Assembly (NCBI GenBank): GCA_965262615.1
Contig: OZ253545.1
Location: 352,001 to 416,000, forward strand
Source of the DNA: Alphaproteobacteria bacterium
GTDB taxonomy: Bacteria > Pseudomonadota > Alphaproteobacteria > GM7ARS4 > G965262615
DNA: 64,000 bases
Direction: 5' to 3'
Shown: positions 8,416 through 25,122 of the stretch, in pieces
Layout: the number at the start of each line of letters is the position of its first letter
Position numbering within the stretch: the first letter of the stretch is position 1
Notes under the pieces: model-generated
Seen by the model: only the letters and a program-made list of their open reading frames with translations
Told to the model about the DNA's origin: nothing
Database searches by the model: none
Translations under genes and position numbers: made by a program

Positions 8416-8589
8416 TCATGCCACCAAGTCTTTGTAGCGTAACCTTTTACCTTTCATATCGCTAGCCACCGATTCCATCTGTGTGATGGTGTCTTGCTTG
8501 CGGGTGTTATGCCGTCCAGCAAATTCATTGACATAGCGGGCAAGATGCTTACGGCTCATGCTATGATGCGTTCCATAGTATCCCCAAAA
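8416..8589 (-). pseudogene. IS1595-family transposase C-terminal remnant
   Basis: Hand-translated GYYGTHHSMSRKHLARYVNEFAGRHNTRKQDTITQM...GKRLRYKDLVA*, matching the G.YH..S.KHL.RY..EF..R.N signature. Confidence 0.8.
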
Positions 8590-10701
8590 CTAAAAAAGAG
8601 ACAATAGCCGCTTGAAATAATTATGAGTCTCTTCATCCACATCTTCCAATTGAGAGTGCAGATAGGAGGTGATGCGACTTTGCTCACTGTGCTCTTTGTC
8701 TTGCAGCAGTGAAACATCGTCATTGTTTTGATGTTTTTCGTTCCATCCCAGTCCTTTGAGTTTTTTGCCGCTTTGAGTCTGTTGGGGTTGGCTTTGTTGC
8801 TGATTGTGCTGCCGCAGCGAGCGGAGCAGTGCCAGCAGAGCCAGTTCTTGATGGGAGGTGGCTTCTTGTCGCTGCTGTCGCCGTAGGGATTGCTCTGCTG
8901 CCGACATTGATTCTTGGGCTCTTTGTTGCGGCTCTGCGGTGAGAGGAGGCAGTTGTTCCAATTGGGTGCGCAATTGCTGTTGCAGCTGTGCCAGTTGCTC
9001 TGAGGGCATGATATTCTTGTTGGTGTCGTTGAGAAGTTTTTTTTGTCTCTGAATGAGCTCTTGCAATTGGTCGTGATGGCGTTGCTGAGCCTCAGCAAAA
9101 TCTTGTTGAGCTTGTTGTTTTTTCATTTTTTCAAGCCACTGCGAGAGCAATTCTTTGGCTTGTTCGTGCGCGCCTTGGGAAAGCAATTGTTGAGATCGTT
9201 CAATATCATTTTTTGCCTGTTGTTGATCATCGGGCAGGGCGCGCTGAATTTGCTCCAGCGTTTCGCGAATCTCGGCAAGGGTGTCGTCATGAAGAGATGG
9301 TGGCTGTTCTAATTGCGTTTCTAGTTGTTGCAGAAGGGCGGTCATGTTTTGTCCATCTAAGATAAGGGCGGCGTACCACAGGGCGGCGGATGTTTGTGAG
9401 GGATCGGCAAGGGCGATGGCAACATGCACACGAGCACCATCATCGGAAATGGATTCCATGATGGTGACCAGACGCTTGGTGGGAGGATTGTGTCCTAAGA
9501 GGAATTTTTTGCGCCACGCGATTAAAGCGCGCGCATGGTCATTATAAAAGACCCGTTCGGGCAAAATGAGAGTGATGGGCTCACTGTGTGTTTGGTGTCC
9601 GTATCCATCCTGTGCTGCGAGGTGAATCATGACCGTCTCACCAGCAAAAGGATGGGGTGTCAGGTCGCGCGTGAAGACCGATTCAATGACGGTGGCATCT
9701 TGTTGCAATGTGGCATTGAGGGAGATGTCATCGGACAAGCCACTGAGATGGGTGAGACGCATGGCGGCTTGGGTGATGCCATAGTCATCCACCATGGCGT
9801 AGGGCAGAGATTGAATATAGCCTTGTTTTTCGCCTGTGGCGATGTGGGCGATGGGATTTTTATCGCGAATGGGGGCAAGAGGAATCGTCCAGGCGCGTCC
9901 TTCATGAAAAAAATGAATCTGGCGAGCATCCACAGGCAGAGGAAAGGCGATGCGATACCCATCCTGACGACTGCCGCCCACGGGCACGGCGTGTTGATTC
10001 AAACGCAACGATGGCTTGTGCCACGAGGGCTCTGTCTCTATTTGCAGCAGGCTTTGTTCGGGGAACATCACCACCTGTCGGTGATTGAGGTCAATATCAA
10101 AAGGCAGTTGGCGGGTATAGGAAGGCGGAACAACACGCCACGCTCCATTGTAAGGGAGCGGTTCGGGCGTGATATGGGCATGCAAATGGGGCAACATGAG
10201 CACCAGCATGGCGATGGCGGCTGTAGAGAAGAGAGCAGCCGGTATAATTTTGCGAGCCGTATGTGTCATGATGGCACACCAGCGAGAAAAAGAAATCGTG
10301 GCAAGGGCAAGGCGAGCACGGTGTTGATGCTTGTGCCAGGCATGGGTGTGTCGTCGCCCCCCGTGACTGACGGGTGAATCTCGCAAGCTGCGCAATGGCG
10401 CGTGCGGCAATGCCCCCCATTTTTCCAAAAGGGCAAACTGGCGTTCTTTGTCATAACGCCACGCAGGCAATGACACAGAGCGCAGACACCATAAAAAAGC
10501 CAGCAGTGAGGCAGAAACGGTGACAAAAAACAAAAATCGCTTTGAAAGAATCTGATTATCGCTGTCTATCAAGGTGAGTGCCGTGACGGCAAGCACAACC
10601 AACCATAAGGGAGCAAAGGCGCGCAGCACCATATAGCCAAAGGTGAGCCATTGCATGAGGGTGGCAAGAATGTGGCACAGAACAATCATGATGCGAGCCA
10701 C
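8590..10701 (-). CDS. DUF4175/TIGR02302-like membrane coiled-coil protein
   Basis: N-terminal TM helices, PPSYT..LP, DDYGI and LPERVF motifs, Q-rich C-terminus; downstream of lysA. Confidence 0.65.
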   Translation of the reverse strand: MARIMIVLCHILATLMQWLTFGYMVLRAFAPLWLVVLAVTALTLIDSDNQILSKRFLFFVTVSASLLAFLWCLRSVSLPAWRYDKERQFALLEKWGALPHAPLRSLRDSPVSHGGRRHTHAWHKHQHRARLALATISFSRWCAIMTHTARKIIPAALFSTAAIAMLVLMLPHLHAHITPEPLPYNGAWRVVPPSYTRQLPFDIDLNHRQVVMFPEQSLLQIETEPSWHKPSLRLNQHAVPVGGSRQDGYRIAFPLPVDARQIHFFHEGRAWTIPLAPIRDKNPIAHIATGEKQGYIQSLPYAMVDDYGITQAAMRLTHLSGLSDDISLNATLQQDATVIESVFTRDLTPHPFAGETVMIHLAAQDGYGHQTHSEPITLILPERVFYNDHARALIAWRKKFLLGHNPPTKRLVTIMESISDDGARVHVAIALADPSQTSAALWYAALILDGQNMTALLQQLETQLEQPPSLHDDTLAEIRETLEQIQRALPDDQQQAKNDIERSQQLLSQGAHEQAKELLSQWLEKMKKQQAQQDFAEAQQRHHDQLQELIQRQKKLLNDTNKNIMPSEQLAQLQQQLRTQLEQLPPLTAEPQQRAQESMSAAEQSLRRQQRQEATSHQELALLALLRSLRQHNQQQSQPQQTQSGKKLKGLGWNEKHQNNDDVSLLQDKEHSEQSRITSYLHSQLEDVDEETHNYFKRLLSLF

Positions 10702-17955: not shown

Positions 17956-18987
17956 TCATCGGTTTTCTGTCAATGTTGTTTTCATCAGAATTTCAAGCCA
18001 CTTGCGAGTTTTTTTATCCAAGCGAAAGCGATTGTGCACGGCAGGCAGGCAATTGACATCGTGAATGAGCAAGGCAAACCGTGATAGCAACACGATATCA
18101 TCATGAGTCATGTGTCGCTTGAGGTCACGAATGGTTTTTGGTGCATGAATCAATTGCAGTGATTGCAAAATGCCGTTTTGACTCATGAGATTATAATAAT
18201 CCATGTGTTGCTCGAGGTCACGAATGGTTTTTGGCGCGTGAATCAATTCCAATGATTGCAAAATGTCGTTTTCACTCATGAGCTCAAGAGCCGCCAGAGG
18301 TTTTGGCAGAGCAAGGATTTGTTTGAACTCACGCCAGAGACGCTCGCCAGAGACTTTTTTCAGTCCCACGCGCGCCTCACGCAAAACCGAGAGCAATTCA
18401 GGCTCAGGCGGCTCGCATTGATGAAAGGCATGAAAGCGAAAAAAACGCAGCAGACGCAAATAATCCTCTTTGAGGCGTTTCATGGGGTCACCGATAAAGC
18501 GCACGATGCCTTTTTGCAAATCATCAATGCCGCGCTGGCTGGGGTCATACACATCACCTTTCAGATTGGCATACAGGGCATTGAAGGTGAAGTCACGCCG
18601 TTGCCAATCGTCATTCCAGTCACGACTATAGGTGACGGTGGCGTGTCGTCCATCGGTCTCAATGTCTTTACGCAAGGTGGTGATTTCAAAGGCATGGTTT
18701 TCATGAATCGCGGTGATGGTGCCGTGCTCAATGCCAGTGGGAAGGCTTTTGATGTTATGACGCTTCAGCAGAGCCATCACCTCTTGGGGTTCGTGGGTGG
18801 TGGCAAGATCAATGTCGGCAAGAGGCTCGTTTTTAAGCAGATGGCGCACCGCACCCCCCACAATGAGACACGCCTCTTGCTTGTCATTGAGAAGCCTCAT
18901 GATGGTGGCGACAGGATGATGGGTCAGAGGAATGTGTGACGGTGCGATGGAATGCGCCCGCCAAGGAATCAAACGAGATGACATCAT
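17956..18987 (-). CDS. cca: CCA tRNA nucleotidyltransferase (class II), N-terminal catalytic part
   Basis: VGGAVR, DIDLAT, EITTLR, RRDFTFNA and EDYLRLLRFFRF motifs. Confidence 0.9.
   Translation of the reverse strand: MMSSRLIPWRAHSIAPSHIPLTHHPVATIMRLLNDKQEACLIVGGAVRHLLKNEPLADIDLATTHEPQEVMALLKRHNIKSLPTGIEHGTITAIHENHAFEITTLRKDIETDGRHATVTYSRDWNDDWQRRDFTFNALYANLKGDVYDPSQRGIDDLQKGIVRFIGDPMKRLKEDYLRLLRFFRFHAFHQCEPPEPELLSVLREARVGLKKVSGERLWREFKQILALPKPLAALELMSENDILQSLELIHAPKTIRDLEQHMDYYNLMSQNGILQSLQLIHAPKTIRDLKRHMTHDDIVLLSRFALLIHDVNCLPAVHNRFRLDKKTRKWLEILMKTTLTENR
18110..18282 (-). repeat. In-frame tandem duplication in cca (93-nt period)
   Basis: LMSENDILQSLELIHAPKTIRDLEQHM / LMSQNGILQSLQLIHAPKTIRDLKRHM. 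Confidence 0.85.
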
Positions 18988-20575: not shown

Positions 20576-21882
20576 TCGGTGCGCAGTGAGGGGGCATCAA
20601 TGCCACTTTTGAATTCCAGGTCATCGGCGGCGCGCATGGACGCAAACACATCGCGCAGATTACCCGCCAGAGTCACCTCACCCACCGCATGACTCCAATC
20701 ACCGTTTTCAATCAAGAAGCCCGATGCGCCGCGCGAATAATCACCATTTTCCAGATTGAGCGATGACCCCAACAGCTCGGTGACATAAAATCCGCGCGCA
20801 ACATCCGCCATCAATTGCTGCGGTGAGCAATCCCCTTTGGCAAGATACATATTGCTGGCATTGGGCGCGGGATGCTCACTGACTTTGCGCGCCGCATGAG
20901 CCGTGGAGGGCAATTGCAACAGGTGTCCATTGCGAATGTCCAAAAAACGCCCCTTGAGAATGCCGTCTCCGACGATGGTGGTGCGCGCACCCGCCAAGCC
21001 CTCGCTGTCAAAGGGACGAGAGCGATGACCGCGCGCACGATGAGGGTCATCAATGATGGTGATGGAGGAATCCATGATTTTTTCGTCAAAGCGAGAACAC
21101 AAAAAACTGGTTTGCCGCACAAGACGCTCCCCCGACAGAGCATCAATCAGATGACGCAGCAACGAGGATGCCACACGGGGTGCAAAAATCACGGGCATGG
21201 CTTCAGAGGCTATTTTTTTTGCGTTCAAGCGATTGACCGTTCGCTGTGCGGTCTCTCTGCCCAATGATTCCAAGTCTCCCATGTTTTCCCAGTGGGTGAC
21301 ATGCTTGAATTCGTAGTCGCGCTCCATGGTGTCATCACTGCCGGCGATGACCGACAGGGCGATGGAGTGGTCGGTTTTGTCGTAATGACCGTGAAATCCC
21401 TCGCTGGTGGCAAGAGTCAAACGCTGACGCTCAAACCCACACGCCGAGCCTTCGGAATTGGTGATGTCTTTGTGGGCGCGCGCGGCTTGTTCCAGTTCAC
21501 GCGCTCTTGCGATGAGGTCTTTTTCTTGCGGCGTTGTGTCATCGTGCAAGTCAAGAGGCATGATGGTTGCCGCGTATTCTTTTGTTGATGCCAGACGGCT
21601 GGCTTCATCTTCGGGGGTTTTTTGGGCGAGTGAGACGGCGCGGTCGCATAAATCGGCAAGAGCGGTGGCATCCAAAATTTGACTGGAAAGCAGAGCTTTG
21701 CTTTTGCCCACCCACACCCGCAGAGCCAGCTGATGGTTCTCGCTGTATTCCAGCGATTCAATCTCATCCAGGCGCACGCACGCTTGATGATGGGTGCGAT
21801 GACTCAGCAACACCTCGCTATGGGTCGCCCCTGCGTCACTTGCCCATCCCAGCATCTTGCTTATGAGGTTTTTGTCGTCCAT
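20551..21882 (-). CDS. pmbA: TldE/PmbA-family protein
   Basis: SRPFDSEG and GDYSRGASGF.IENG motifs. Confidence 0.88.
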   Translation of the reverse strand: MDDKNLISKMLGWASDAGATHSEVLLSHRTHHQACVRLDEIESLEYSENHQLALRVWVGKSKALLSSQILDATALADLCDRAVSLAQKTPEDEASRLASTKEYAATIMPLDLHDDTTPQEKDLIARARELEQAARAHKDITNSEGSACGFERQRLTLATSEGFHGHYDKTDHSIALSVIAGSDDTMERDYEFKHVTHWENMGDLESLGRETAQRTVNRLNAKKIASEAMPVIFAPRVASSLLRHLIDALSGERLVRQTSFLCSRFDEKIMDSSITIIDDPHRARGHRSRPFDSEGLAGARTTIVGDGILKGRFLDIRNGHLLQLPSTAHAARKVSEHPAPNASNMYLAKGDCSPQQLMADVARGFYVTELLGSSLNLENGDYSRGASGFLIENGDWSHAVGEVTLAGNLRDVFASMRAADDLEFKSGIDAPSLRTDCLMVAGK

Positions 21883-21888
21883 GATAGT

Positions 21889-23082
21889 ATGAATATGAAA
21901 AGAATAGTCATTGCACAAGGGGGCGGGCCCACGGTTGTGATCAATCAGACGCTGGTGGGGGTGATTGAACAAGCACAAAAAATGGGCGTGAGCGATATTT
22001 GGGGCGCGCATGGCGGCGTGCGCGGCATGGCGGAGGGGCAATTTTTCAATATGTCTTCGTTATCGCCAGAACACTTGCAAGCGGTTGCCATGACACCATC
22101 GGCGGCACTGGCTTCCACCAGAGACAAACCCGATGACACCTATTGTGCCGTTGTGTGCAAGGTGTTGTCATCGCATGGTATTGACGGTGTGTTCTATATT
22201 GGCGGCAATGACACCAGTGCCACACTGATGCAATTGAGTGCATTCAGCCAGCAGCATAAAGGACACCCATTGCGAGCGGTGCATGTTCCCAAGACCATTG
22301 ATAATGATTTGGTGTGCAATGACCATGTGCCGGGGTATGGCTCGGCGGCGCGTTATGTGGCACTGGCGGTGCGCGGGCTTGATTTTGACCAACGGGCATT
22401 GGCGGGAATTCATCTGGTGGTGGTGATGGGTCGCCATGCGGGATTTCTCACCGCCGCCGCCGCCGCCCTGCGCCGTGATGAAGCCGATGGCCCTCATATC
22501 ATCTGTCTGCCTGAGGATGAGTTTGATGAGGATTCCTTTCTTGCCGCCATTGAGGATTGCTACACCAAATATGGACGCTGTTTGATTGCCGTGAGCGAGG
22601 GAATCAAGGGAAGCGATGGCAAACCCATTGTGACGCAATTGACGCGTGATGAGACGGATGCTCATGGCAATGTGCAGCTGTCTGGCAGTGGAGCGTTGGG
22701 GGATGCCTTGGCAGCGCGCATCAAAAAAGCCATGCCAAATGCGCGTGTGCGCTCCGATACATTGGGCTACATGCAGCGATGTTTTCCCGCCGTTGTCTCG
22801 GACACAGATGCCACAGAGGCGCGCGAGGCGGGACGCAAAGCCGTTGAGTTTGCCCTGCAGCAGCAAAAAGATGGCTCGGTGACCCTCAATCGCAATGAGG
22901 CGGGTGAGACCGTGTATGGCTATGAGAATCTCCAAGCCATCGGCGGCAAGACGCGCTATTTGCCCAATGAGTTCTGGCACAAAGGAAAATGGAATTTGAC
23001 TCCTGCTTTTGTCCAATGGGTCAAGCCGCTCTTGGGAAGTGATTTGCCCGTTTTGACTTCGCTGCAAGCGAAAAAAATCTAA
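21889..23082 (+). CDS. 6-phosphofructokinase, probably PPi-dependent
   Basis: AQGGGPT.VIN, IGGNDT, PKTIDND and VMGRHAG motifs. Confidence 0.88.
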   Translation: MNMKRIVIAQGGGPTVVINQTLVGVIEQAQKMGVSDIWGAHGGVRGMAEGQFFNMSSLSPEHLQAVAMTPSAALASTRDKPDDTYCAVVCKVLSSHGIDGVFYIGGNDTSATLMQLSAFSQQHKGHPLRAVHVPKTIDNDLVCNDHVPGYGSAARYVALAVRGLDFDQRALAGIHLVVVMGRHAGFLTAAAAALRRDEADGPHIICLPEDEFDEDSFLAAIEDCYTKYGRCLIAVSEGIKGSDGKPIVTQLTRDETDAHGNVQLSGSGALGDALAARIKKAMPNARVRSDTLGYMQRCFPAVVSDTDATEAREAGRKAVEFALQQQKDGSVTLNRNEAGETVYGYENLQAIGGKTRYLPNEFWHKGKWNLTPAFVQWVKPLLGSDLPVLTSLQAKKI

Positions 23083-23268
23083 AGAAACGAAATATTTTCA
23101 TCTGTATGCCATTGAATTGATGTCAATGACGCAATAATTCACCTTTGTTGGTCACTCAAAACATGATACACTTTATGTAATTCTGTGTGGCACAGAGCGG
23201 AGCAATACGCTTTCCCTGCTTCACAAGAAAGGGAGGCAAGGAATTGAGCGTTGTTTATAGTGGGTGAG

Positions 23269-23352
23269 TGCGGGCGGTCGGACTCGAACCGACACGGAAG
23301 CAATTCCACTATTATGACAAAATAGCGCGTCTACCAATTTCGCCACGCCCGC
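23269..23352 (-). tRNA. Non-canonical tRNA: tRNA-Leu-type body with GTC (Asp) anticodon; CCA not encoded
   Basis: GCGGGCG TG GCGAAATTGGTAGACGC G CTATT-TTGTCAT-AATAG T GGAA-TTGC-TTCC GT GTCGG-TTCGAGT-CCGAC CGCCCGC A; all stems pair. Confidence 0.8.
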
Positions 23353-23398
23353 AAATTCCGATGTCTGCGCCCGTGTATTGCTCAATGACAATCGGTCG

Positions 23399-23429
23399 GG
23401 GGGTCTGCTTTGCAGACCCCCTGCTTTTT
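23399..23429. terminator. GC-rich hairpin, probable intrinsic terminator
   Basis: GGGGGTCTGC-TTT-GCAGACCCCC followed by TGCTTTTT. Confidence 0.6.
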
Positions 23430-23458
23430 ATCAACATGACAAAAGAATATATGATTAT

Positions 23459-23836
23459 TCAATCGGCGAAATAACGAGTGATGCCGTTATCTTCTTCTAC
23501 TCTTAATGATTTTGTCGTGAGCTGATCCTCGAAACTTTCCATTTCTGCAGTTTTGTTTTCCTCACGAGGCAATTTCATCTTAAAGGGAAATGTCTTGAGC
23601 TCGTATCCATGATTTTGAATGAGGTCAAGGTGTTCCATGCTTTGTCCCCAGCCACTCTGTCTTCTCCCGTCGTTAAATTCCCAACGACTATCCAATATAA
23701 CACCCACTTCAGTTTGAGGGTCATTTTGCCACTCGCCAAAAATGACAAATTTTTCGTCATGATTGACATACGACCAGCTCCACCGCCAGTTGTCGCAGGT
23801 TGCACCATTGCTTTCTATGAATTGTTTTAGGCTCAT
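23459..23836 (-). CDS. Hypothetical protein; resembles the N-terminal domain of some HNH endonucleases
   Basis: AT-richer ORF, KQFIES.GATC.NW.WSWS.VNH.EKFVIFG.W; family recalled from memory; no HNH motif present. Confidence 0.5.
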   Translation of the reverse strand: MSLKQFIESNGATCDNWRWSWSYVNHDEKFVIFGEWQNDPQTEVGVILDSRWEFNDGRRQSGWGQSMEHLDLIQNHGYELKTFPFKMKLPREENKTAEMESFEDQLTTKSLRVEEDNGITRYFAD

Positions 23837-25122
23837 TGAAAAATTGGGATGATTTGCGGTGGCGAGAGAATGTCATTTTGTTTGTGCCATGTTTTTTGCA
23901 GGGTGTCAATGATGTCTTGTTTTGCGGGATGGGTGGTCATCACCAGCTGGGTGTTCTTGCCTTGAGGCGTGTCTTGAATGATGTGATTGAGAGAGACTCC
24001 CTCGCGCGCGCATTGTTCAGAAATGTGAGCCAACACGCCTGCGCGATCCTCAACCTCTAAGCGAATATAAAACGCGCGGCTCAAAGGATTATGACTCTCA
24101 GTTTTTTTGTCGTATCCATCATTGACGATAGGAAGGGAATTGTTTTCGCGCATTAAATCTGTGAGGTCGCTGATGACGGCGGCGGCGGTGGCGGCGCGTC
24201 CCGCGCCGTGTCCCGTCAGCAATAGGGGACCCAGAGGCTCGCTGTGCAGCACCACCCCATTGGTGACATCATGCACATGGGCAAGGTCATGGTTTTTATC
24301 CAGCAGCATGGCTTCCACATGACGAATCACGCGTCCCTCATGCCACACCCCATCGGCAAGATGGCGAATGACAAACCCCCATTGGGACGCATAGTGAAAA
24401 TCCTCAGTGGTGATGTGTTCAATGCCGCCCACGGGAAATGAGGTGTCCCATCCCGCCTCGCCCCACGCCATTGCCGCAAGGATGGTCAATTTGTGCGCGG
24501 CATCATGCCCGTGAATGTCGGTGGATGGGTCGGCTTCGGCATAGCCCAATTGTTGAGCATCATGCAGGGCATCGCTGAAGGCACGATTTTGCCTCGCCAT
24601 TTGCGTGAGGATATAATTGCATGTGCCATTGAGAATGCCCGTGATGCGGGTGATGTGATTGACCATCATGCCCTCCCGTAGCACCTTGATGACAGGAATG
24701 CCGCCGCCCACCGCCGCCTCAAACGCCAGCTGACAATTGTTTTTGTCTGCCAATGCAAAAAGAGCCTCGCCCTTTTGTGCCAGCAACGCCTTGTTGGCGG
24801 TGATGACATGTTTGCCATTGCGAAGACAGCGCGTCACCAGTTCATCGGCAATGCCGTTCGTGCCGCCAATCAGTTCAATGACGATGTCAATGGCATCATC
24901 GTCCGCCAGCTGCAAAGCATCGGGGACAAAACGGCAGTGTGGCGGCAGAGGTTTTGCGAGTTTGTCATTCAGATCCGACACGGCATGAAGGCGCACGCTT
25001 CCAAGACTGCGCGCCGCCACCAATCCATGATGGTAGGAATCACGCAGCAAATCATAGACACCGCCGCCCACCGTTCCCAAGCCGGCAATGGCAACAGCAT
25101 ATTCTTTTTTAGGATGGCTCAT
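23833..25122 (-). CDS. hom: Homoserine dehydrogenase
   Basis: GLGTVGGG, TANKA, EAAVGGGIP and GYAEADP motifs; ACT domain. Confidence 0.95.
   Translation of the reverse strand: MSHPKKEYAVAIAGLGTVGGGVYDLLRDSYHHGLVAARSLGSVRLHAVSDLNDKLAKPLPPHCRFVPDALQLADDDAIDIVIELIGGTNGIADELVTRCLRNGKHVITANKALLAQKGEALFALADKNNCQLAFEAAVGGGIPVIKVLREGMMVNHITRITGILNGTCNYILTQMARQNRAFSDALHDAQQLGYAEADPSTDIHGHDAAHKLTILAAMAWGEAGWDTSFPVGGIEHITTEDFHYASQWGFVIRHLADGVWHEGRVIRHVEAMLLDKNHDLAHVHDVTNGVVLHSEPLGPLLLTGHGAGRAATAAAVISDLTDLMRENNSLPIVNDGYDKKTESHNPLSRAFYIRLEVEDRAGVLAHISEQCAREGVSLNHIIQDTPQGKNTQLVMTTHPAKQDIIDTLQKTWHKQNDILSPPQIIPIFQ

Follow-up and report, generated by a model that had tools for sequence, protein, structure and literature searches.

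Natural tRNAs whose identity elements and anticodon are discordant test the rigidity of the genetic code, and such molecules have been described from both nematodes and bacteria. The nematode nev-tRNAs, nev-tRNA-Gly(CCC) and nev-tRNA-Ile(UAU), are described by Hamashima et al. 2012 (PMC3333845) as class-II tRNAs derived from tRNA-Leu that bear non-Leu anticodons and are present in addition to the normal set; according to the same source, they are weakly expressed and charged only with leucine, and GGG is read as Leu in vitro. The allo-tRNAs, known from Acidobacteria and other bacteria, are class-II tRNAs with a mismatch between anticodon and identity, with GUC among their three predominant anticodons; mobile or toxin-antitoxin genes are often found close by, and the authors propose that allo-tRNAs act as missense suppressors and/or regulators (Mukai et al. 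2017, PMC5389517).

Here we describe a tRNA gene with a leucine-type body and the aspartate anticodon GUC, found in a 64,000-nucleotide stretch of an alphaproteobacterial genome (hereafter the window). Like the nev-tRNAs, it is a Leu-derived class-II tRNA that has a non-Leu anticodon and is surplus to the normal set, and a relative of this bacterium carries the same CCC anticodon as one of them. Unlike these nematode-specific, eukaryotic molecules, it belongs to a bacterium, has GUC and shows an anticodon that differs between close relatives. With the allo-tRNAs it shares a bacterial origin, the class-II form and an anticodon not matching its identity; however, those have 8/4 or 9/3 acceptor/T arms and serine identity, whereas the present tRNA has the 7/5 arrangement, A73 and a Leu-type D arm. 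A further bacterial tRNA in which identity elements and anticodon disagree is tRNAProX, for which deliberate mistranslation has reportedly been proposed and which is said to have a dedicated synthetase paralogue. The two are alike in the conflict between identity and anticodon, but the present genome has a single LeuRS and a single AspRS instead of such a paralogue. The tRNAProX/ProRSx pair of Streptomyces is named in a review (PMC11415595).

As far as these accounts describe them, the closest functional analogues are the nematode nev-tRNAs and the closest bacterial precedent is the allo-tRNAs. A literature search of articles without their supplements brought up no description of 7/5 Leu-type tRNAs with non-Leu anticodons in bacteria, though the supplements to Mukai et al. 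2017 may include some. The tRNA described here may bring about a low level of misreading of the genetic code, and it adds an ordinary 7/5 Leu frame in bacteria to the discordant tRNAs, with comparative evidence of a changing anticodon in a tRNA whose 3' half, at least, is constant among the differences listed, and with a design met repeatedly in different phyla and on transposons. Provided that these tRNAs are charged and take part in translation, bacteria possess transferable genes that misincorporate leucine at specific codons; should decoding not be their use, the leucine-tRNA shape would have a job that is yet to be described.

Structure of the tRNA gene

ARAGORN called the locus (Table 1) as tRNA-Asp(gtc) at 23268-23352, one base longer than the 84-nt gene, and the Rfam model RF00005 covers 23269-23352 end to end with 54.4 bits (gathering 29, E 2.9e-10), a score within the span of the genome's five tRNA-Leu genes (48.2-62.4 bits). 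A scripted parse of the cloverleaf recovered the acceptor (7/7), the anticodon stem (5/5, CTATT/AATAG) and the T stem (5/5), with all 24 of 24 stem pairs intact, a variable region of 15 nt with a 4-bp stem (GGAA/TTCC) and discriminator A73. The original prediction, made from the letters of the DNA, had described an 84-nt cloverleaf, paired in all its stems, with a Leu-type D arm, a long variable arm (GGAA-TTGC-TTCC), A73, and an AT-rich CTATT/AATAG anticodon stem with the loop TT-GTC-AT retaining U33 and purine 37, and was borne out in each of these particulars. Confirmation of the bases from sequencing had also been advised: the contigs of two runs (X1 and X3) span the gene and have no difference inside it, though they are contigs rather than raw reads and may stem from the source sample.

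Table 1. Features at and around the tRNA gene (positions in the window)
Feature	Position	Strand	Basis
PolyA_pol-family nucleotidyltransferase	17956..18987	-	Pfam PF01743, PF12627
Phosphofructokinase gene (pfk), convergent with the tRNA	21679..23082	+	Pfam
Lineage-specific insert of ~750 nt between the convergent pfk and hom stops, carrying the tRNA and orf125	23083..23832		comparison with G001 and G003
tRNA gene, Leu-type body, anticodon GUC, class-II, 84 nt	23269..23352	-	ARAGORN, Rfam, cloverleaf parse
Anticodon loop UUGUCAU, 7 nt	23314..23320	-	sequence; anticodon at 23316-23318
Terminator-like hairpin with T-run, antisense to the tRNA	23397..23423	+	promoter/terminator scan
orf125, orphan 125-aa protein directly upstream of the tRNA, same strand	23459..23836	-	no Pfam, PADLOC or PHROG match
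Homoserine dehydrogenase gene (hom), first of a minus-strand unit heading towards the tRNA	23833..25122	-	Pfam

The gene does not encode CCA, CTC coming next on the 3' side; a PolyA_pol-family nucleotidyltransferase in the window is probably the CCA-adding enzyme that a CCA-less tRNA would need. Of the five pairs in the anticodon stem one is G-C and four are A-U, versus 3-4 G-C pairs in the native Leu genes, and thus the cloverleaf (-28.9 kcal/mol) is not favoured by thermodynamics alone over the alternative minimum-free-energy fold (-33.2 kcal/mol; gap 4.3 kcal/mol, z -2.31). We set that alternative aside, in which the D region pairs with the anticodon loop, as on inspection it would lose pairs in the CCC variant of a relative described below. 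Taken as a whole, the locus is a real accessory tRNA gene of the Leu type whose structure has been maintained.

Identity elements and the tRNA complement of the genome

By the identity rules as given in PMC9976931, E. coli LeuRS requires A73 together with the hinge A15-U48, G18G19 and A20a and can dispense with the anticodon and the long arm, while C2-G71 guards tRNA-Leu against SerRS. The same source gives the Asp identity set as G73, G34, U35, C36 and C38 plus G1-C72 and G2-C71, the strongest determinant in bacteria being the anticodon G34 U35 C36, which is read by AspRS. The window tRNA has all of the Leu elements (A73, A15-U48, G18G19, A20a and C2-G71), and its D arm, with a 3-bp stem and a Leu-type loop, departs from those of the five native Leu genes at a single position, 13, which is A instead of G. 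Its anticodon, GUC, departs from the Leu pattern (NAG or YAA, with A35) and supplies the G34 U35 C36 of Asp; G1-C72 and G10 are likewise present, but the Asp determinants G73, C38 and G2-C71 are replaced by A73, U38 and C2-G71, and the variable region of 15 nt takes the place of the short class-I loop of tRNA-Asp, the canonical form of which is 77 nt long in this genome. Identity was assigned by Rfam and nearest-neighbour comparison: the full-length relatives of the gene in 40 genomes are all tRNA-Leu, at 71-76% identity, which indicates descent from tRNA-Leu, and its acceptor and T arm are identical to those of the tRNA-Leu(CAA) of two of the genomes compared (G004 and G012). The earlier reading of the gene as a Leu-type body with an Asp anticodon, devoid of the G73 and short variable loop of tRNA-Asp, therefore agrees with the rules as that source states them. 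Since the listed Leu elements are all present, leucylation would be the expected outcome; some aspartylation is possible because bacterial AspRS strongly reads G34 U35 C36.

The window belongs to a single contig of 1.54 Mb (C1; 51% G+C) that constitutes a small marine bacterial genome (G000), in which ARAGORN detected 44 tRNAs and a permuted tmRNA. An inventory of its Leu and Asp tRNAs, as had been suggested along with the prediction, turned up complete normal sets: all five Leu isoacceptors (UAA, UAG, CAG, GAG and CAA) and a canonical 77-nt tRNA-Asp(GUC) at C1:471458-471534. Thus, the tRNA in the window is surplus. There are one bacterial-type LeuRS (C1:1133056-1135557) and one AspRS (C1:170111-171847), with no paralogue of either above the cut-off. 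The genome has a second Leu-type tRNA with a non-Leu anticodon, which brings the total to two, at C1:282690-282788 on the plus strand, about 69 kb before the window; this 99-nt gene was missed by ARAGORN and scores 56.3 bits in Rfam. It has A73, a 30-nt variable arm and the loop UUCGCAC with the Ala-type anticodon CGC, is devoid of G3-U70, and has an acceptor and D arm nearly the same as those of the window tRNA.

Genomic context and orf125

The remaining genes near the tRNA (a hexapeptide transferase, asd and gyrA, by Pfam) are of the housekeeping type. Two genomes from the same order but another family (G001 and G003) keep the order gyrA-asd-hexapeptide-hom/pfk-tldD-kdsB-pheA; in them, about 45 nt separate the stop of hom from that of pfk, and both the tRNA and orf125 are absent. 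As two genomes of the sister family are without both, we regard the tRNA and orf125 as a lineage-specific insert. The promoter/terminator scan found neither a minus-strand terminator nor a good promoter between orf125 and the tRNA, and there are no convincing terminal inverted repeats around the insert. The immediate neighbours of the tRNA are pfk, orf125 and hom, with no transposase beside it, and we found no codon-specific partner gene near it. None of the retrieved tRNA loci shows synteny with the window neighbours, and among the public runs checked for the locus none of RNA type was found.

Two minor features of the window may be recorded here. A 12-nt perfect inverted repeat links 22950-22961 with 23320-23331, such that letters of the pfk coding strand equal those of the junction between the D arm and anticodon stem of the tRNA; by our estimate, about 0.06 chance matches of this kind are expected per 1 kb. 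At 8506-8673 on the minus strand, 14.6 kb from the tRNA, there is a sub-threshold match (23 bits) to an IS1595 transposase domain, with one TAG inside; the genome has no other IS1595 trace, and this one may be spurious, since it runs into the end of a 703-aa ORF.

The orf125 protein, for which no domain was found in Pfam, PADLOC or PHROG, has 9 close homologues, and a profile search gathered 237 relatives. Among 10 longer relatives that we examined, HNH domains were found in 4, NOV_C in 3, EVE in 2, VWA in 1 and no domain in 1. Its predicted fold (pLDDT 87.9) best matches the SRA region of ScoMcrA, a weak match with Z 4.7 that lies below the tool's trust level, followed by other modification-dependent restriction enzymes; Foldseek returned nothing at E <= 0.001. 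We read orf125 as a stand-alone reader domain of the type-IV-restriction-like kind and hence as accessory DNA, with its tie to the tRNA being local. A role as a partner of the tRNA was considered and rejected, as none of the 29 relatives found in viral contigs has a tRNA within 4 kb.

Relatives of the locus and the change of anticodon

A DNA search of 40 relatives, of which only 3 share the order, recovered no ortholog of the gene. A 4371-nt contig from a marine-metagenome run (X5) spans the whole of a 1001-nt stretch around it with 97 substitutions and 15 gaps, and thus represents a relative that is about 90% identical. Within the tRNA, the differences listed for this contig, which reach as far as 23318 and so cover the loop and the 3' 45 nt with the 5' 34 nt outside the listing, are 23314 A>T, 23317 A>G and 23318 C>G only. 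These correspond to tRNA positions 38, 35 and 34 and convert the loop to UUCCCAA, with the anticodon CCC; U33, C36 and A37 stay as they are, and the 3' 45 nt are, among the differences listed, unchanged. Hence, 3 of 7 loop positions have changed, versus 0 of 45 in the 3' part, among the differences listed (Fisher p about 0.002 by our own arithmetic), and the flanks differ by about 5-10%. As the anticodon differs in so close a relative, no particular codon is under long-term selection in this lineage.

Free drift of the anticodon loop among orthologs had been named at the outset as the mark of a pseudogene, and on this point the relative speaks both ways: its anticodon is indeed another one, CCC, yet the changes fall, among the differences listed, at 34, 35 and 38 only. 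Such a pattern of substitutions is not what would be expected of a decaying pseudogene. The unchanged segment extends beyond the gene, in that the 120 nt of 23194-23313 (the 3' part of the tRNA plus 75 nt downstream) are free of change in this relative among the differences listed, and the end of pfk, just past it, shows about 10% differences. In a more distant relative (X7), 424 other letters replace 23137-23504.

Recurrence of Leu-type tRNAs with non-Leu anticodons

A scan in which each species was represented by one genome, for a Leu-type D arm with U33-GUC-R37 after it in register, yielded 46 loci from many phyla, for 35 of which ARAGORN reports a class-II tRNA-Asp(gtc). By our own thresholds, 28 of the 46 are intact cloverleaves, 26 of these with A73 and 5 with C38; the rest comprise 2 cut by contig ends and 16 with broken acceptors or other defects. 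Five genomes with such a locus each possess normal Leu genes and exactly one GUC gene. A scan of metagenomes for any anticodon without A35, requiring G7, U33, R37 and a T loop, gave at least 80 loci; among the 80 listed there are 57 intact cloverleaves, nearly all with A73. The anticodons of these intact cloverleaves are UGG (12), CGC (8), UUA (7), GUC (4), GCC (4), GUU (3; with G73, phage-like) and others seen once or twice.

Within the class of the present genome, 401 genomes were surveyed with positions 33 and 37 unconstrained, and 22 of them matched, mostly through interrupted tRNA-Leu genes that we read as group-I-intron-bearing. Intact A73 Leu-type tRNAs with non-Leu anticodons were recovered from 5 of the 401: the present genome (GUC), G064 (UGC, two copies), G074 (CCU), G163 (UGG) and G396. 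All 8 of the 8 distinct loops in this survey have U33 and a purine at 37. In G396, six Leu-type tRNAs form an array with a period of about 206 nt (L356; C1:1515298-1521030) in which CGC occurs four times and GCC twice, with CCA encoded and a TATAAT box present in every copy. Differences between the copies inside the tRNA are restricted to one D-loop position, to 32, 34, 35 and 38, and to the tip of the variable arm; this arm is 29-30 nt long, and the architecture is the same as that of the CGC gene of the present genome.

Clustering by body revealed that some lineages keep GUC or CGC across species, and that in other groups one body bears GUC, GGA, GCC, CGC, GGG or GGU. Three clusters of related GUC tRNAs keep a constant anticodon while other positions vary, and one of these (L037/L048/L063) displays compensatory changes of anticodon-stem pairs. 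No protein is common to the neighbours of the 46 GUC loci and the window, beyond three syntenic Solirubrobacterales loci, and each Pfam family is limited to at most 4 of the 133 ORFs flanking intact A73 loci (at most one per side). Among these 133 flanking ORFs, the nearest ORF is an IS1595 transposase at 5 loci and IS1-like at 2. The mismatched tRNAs borne on IS1595 differ from the window tRNA in this respect: a transposase adjoins those 5 Leu-type loci of the sample, whereas the window tRNA has no transposase and no convincing element ends. The lineage-specific insert, the CGC sibling and this wide recurrence all go beyond what the original prediction had seen.

Possible functions

Three roles had been put forward with the original prediction: insertion of Leu at GAY codons, supply of Leu-tRNA for non-ribosomal transfer, and a decoy or regulatory RNA. 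The most economical mechanism, and the reading that we tentatively adopt as a fair candidate, is that the window tRNA is leucylated and serves as a weak Asp-to-Leu missense decoder with a labile anticodon. It would be transcribed by read-through from the hom-orf125 unit, processed and then given CCA, and it would be leucylated by the single bacterial-type LeuRS, an enzyme presumed to ignore anticodons. The charged tRNA would then compete weakly with tRNA-Asp at GAY codons, resulting in low-level Asp-to-Leu substitution, with the level held down by the A-U-rich anticodon stem, the want of its own promoter and the competing canonical tRNA-Asp gene; the anticodon itself would be evolutionarily labile. 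With Asp codons at about 59 per 1000 in this genome, efficient Asp-to-Leu replacement should be harmful, and any decoding activity must therefore be low. That these are working tRNAs rather than debris is suggested by the intact body, the canonical loops of the unconstrained survey, the retention of GUC in some lineages and the promoters of the G396 array. Leucylation with missense decoding is also in line with the nev-tRNAs, which share the design and, according to Hamashima et al. 2012, are charged with leucine and read GGG as Leu in vitro.

The labile anticodon could equally be accommodated by a Leu-tRNA-shaped RNA with a codon-independent job, such as a non-ribosomal leucyl donor, a partner of LeuRS or a tRNA-binding protein, or an element for the 3'-end processing or stability of the hom-orf125 transcript, in which the anticodon loop would be free to change. 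The body is kept while the anticodon changes between relatives of about 90% identity (among the differences listed), no terminator separates the tRNA from the upstream operon, and no codon-specific partner gene lies nearby, all of which this explanation accounts for. A loop free to change should nevertheless not have kept U33, C36 and A37 in X5 or yielded canonical 7-nt loops with U33 and R37 in all 8 cases of the unconstrained survey; moreover, GUC is conserved across species in other lineages, and 3 changes in 7 nt exceed the flank background of roughly 5-10%, so that we regard it as rather unlikely. Somewhat less probable still is inert cargo, that is, a young passenger of a mobile or defence islet that is not meaningfully expressed and too recent to have decayed. 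The absence of the ~750-nt insert from sister families, the remnant-like look of orf125, whose reader domain is elsewhere fused to nucleases, the similar tRNAs next to IS1595 or IS1 transposases at 7 loci among the 133 flanking ORFs, the failure to find a promoter and the weak anticodon stem would all fit such a passenger; but uniform decay is at odds with 24 of 24 intact stem pairs and with a relative in which the 3' 45 nt are unchanged (among the differences listed) while 3 of 7 loop positions have changed and the flanks differ by about 5-10%.

We consider it very improbable that the tRNA is charged with aspartate, alone or alongside leucine, through reading of the anticodon by AspRS, which would make it an extra or ambiguous class-II tRNA-Asp. 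The strongest bacterial Asp determinants as listed in PMC9976931, G34, U35 and C36, are indeed in place together with G1-C72 and G10, and C38 occurs in some of the intact GUC relatives (5 of 28). Against this stand A73, U38 and C2-G71 where G73, C38 and G2-C71 belong, the CCC anticodon of X5, which AspRS would not read, and the CGC sibling without G3-U70, which implies that the design overall does not track the amino acid of the anticodon.

Missense decoding by the leucylated tRNA could be one instance of something wider. It is conceivable, if doubtful, that the Leu-framed tRNAs are a mobile bacterial family with a constant body in which retargeting of the anticodon (34 and 35, along with 32 and 38) is rapid, providing re-aimable leucine missense decoding. 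The idea of retargeting derives from GUC versus CCC between relatives of about 90% identity and from CGC versus GCC among the six copies in G396. Re-aimable decoding of this kind might serve genetic conflict or statistical protein diversification, the latter being suggested by the CGC/GCC copies that adjoin giant autotransporter-like genes in two genomes. A codon link between the CGC tRNA and the giant genes was tried and discarded, as GCG is not enriched there and only GGC is.

Other observations on unusual tRNAs and giant ORFs

The CGC tRNA of the present genome is divergent from a pair of G/T/A/S-rich ORFs of 941 and 5057 aa and lies some 280 nt upstream of them. About 6% of this 1.54-Mb genome consists of giant G/T/A/S-rich repeat ORFs, the longest of 11,294 aa, in regions C1:1257768-1316965, 699825-714362 and 264453-282406, and two that were tested are blank in Pfam. 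The G396 array is situated between giant autotransporter-like ORFs of 1477 aa and of over 4000 aa, ending in LNYAF, with no Pfam match.

Among the metagenome loci listed, seven A73 Leu-type tRNAs (L189, L204, L213, L219, L222, L237 and L258) have the ochre-type anticodon UUA; L222 adjoins an IS1595 transposase and L204 an IS1-like transposase. Another set (L185, L191, L212, L253 and the viral L070 and L077) combines a Leu-like D arm and a variable arm of about 29-31 nt with GUU, U1-A72 and G73; these look like class-II-shaped asparagine tRNAs, probably of phages. Viral contigs otherwise yielded mostly interrupted tRNA-Leu genes, with an intron or insertion past the anticodon, or phage His, Gln and Asn tRNAs. 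Three loci (L343, L344 and L345, from G237, G066 and G365) have Leu-type acceptor, D and T arms, A73 and CCA, with an anticodon region that forms no 5-bp stem with a 7-nt loop in register. The present genome also harbours three full-length tRNA-Ser(CGA) genes at C1:1427219, 1433442 and 1440299, spaced by 6-7 kb and differing mainly in the variable loop, which may mark serial island insertions.
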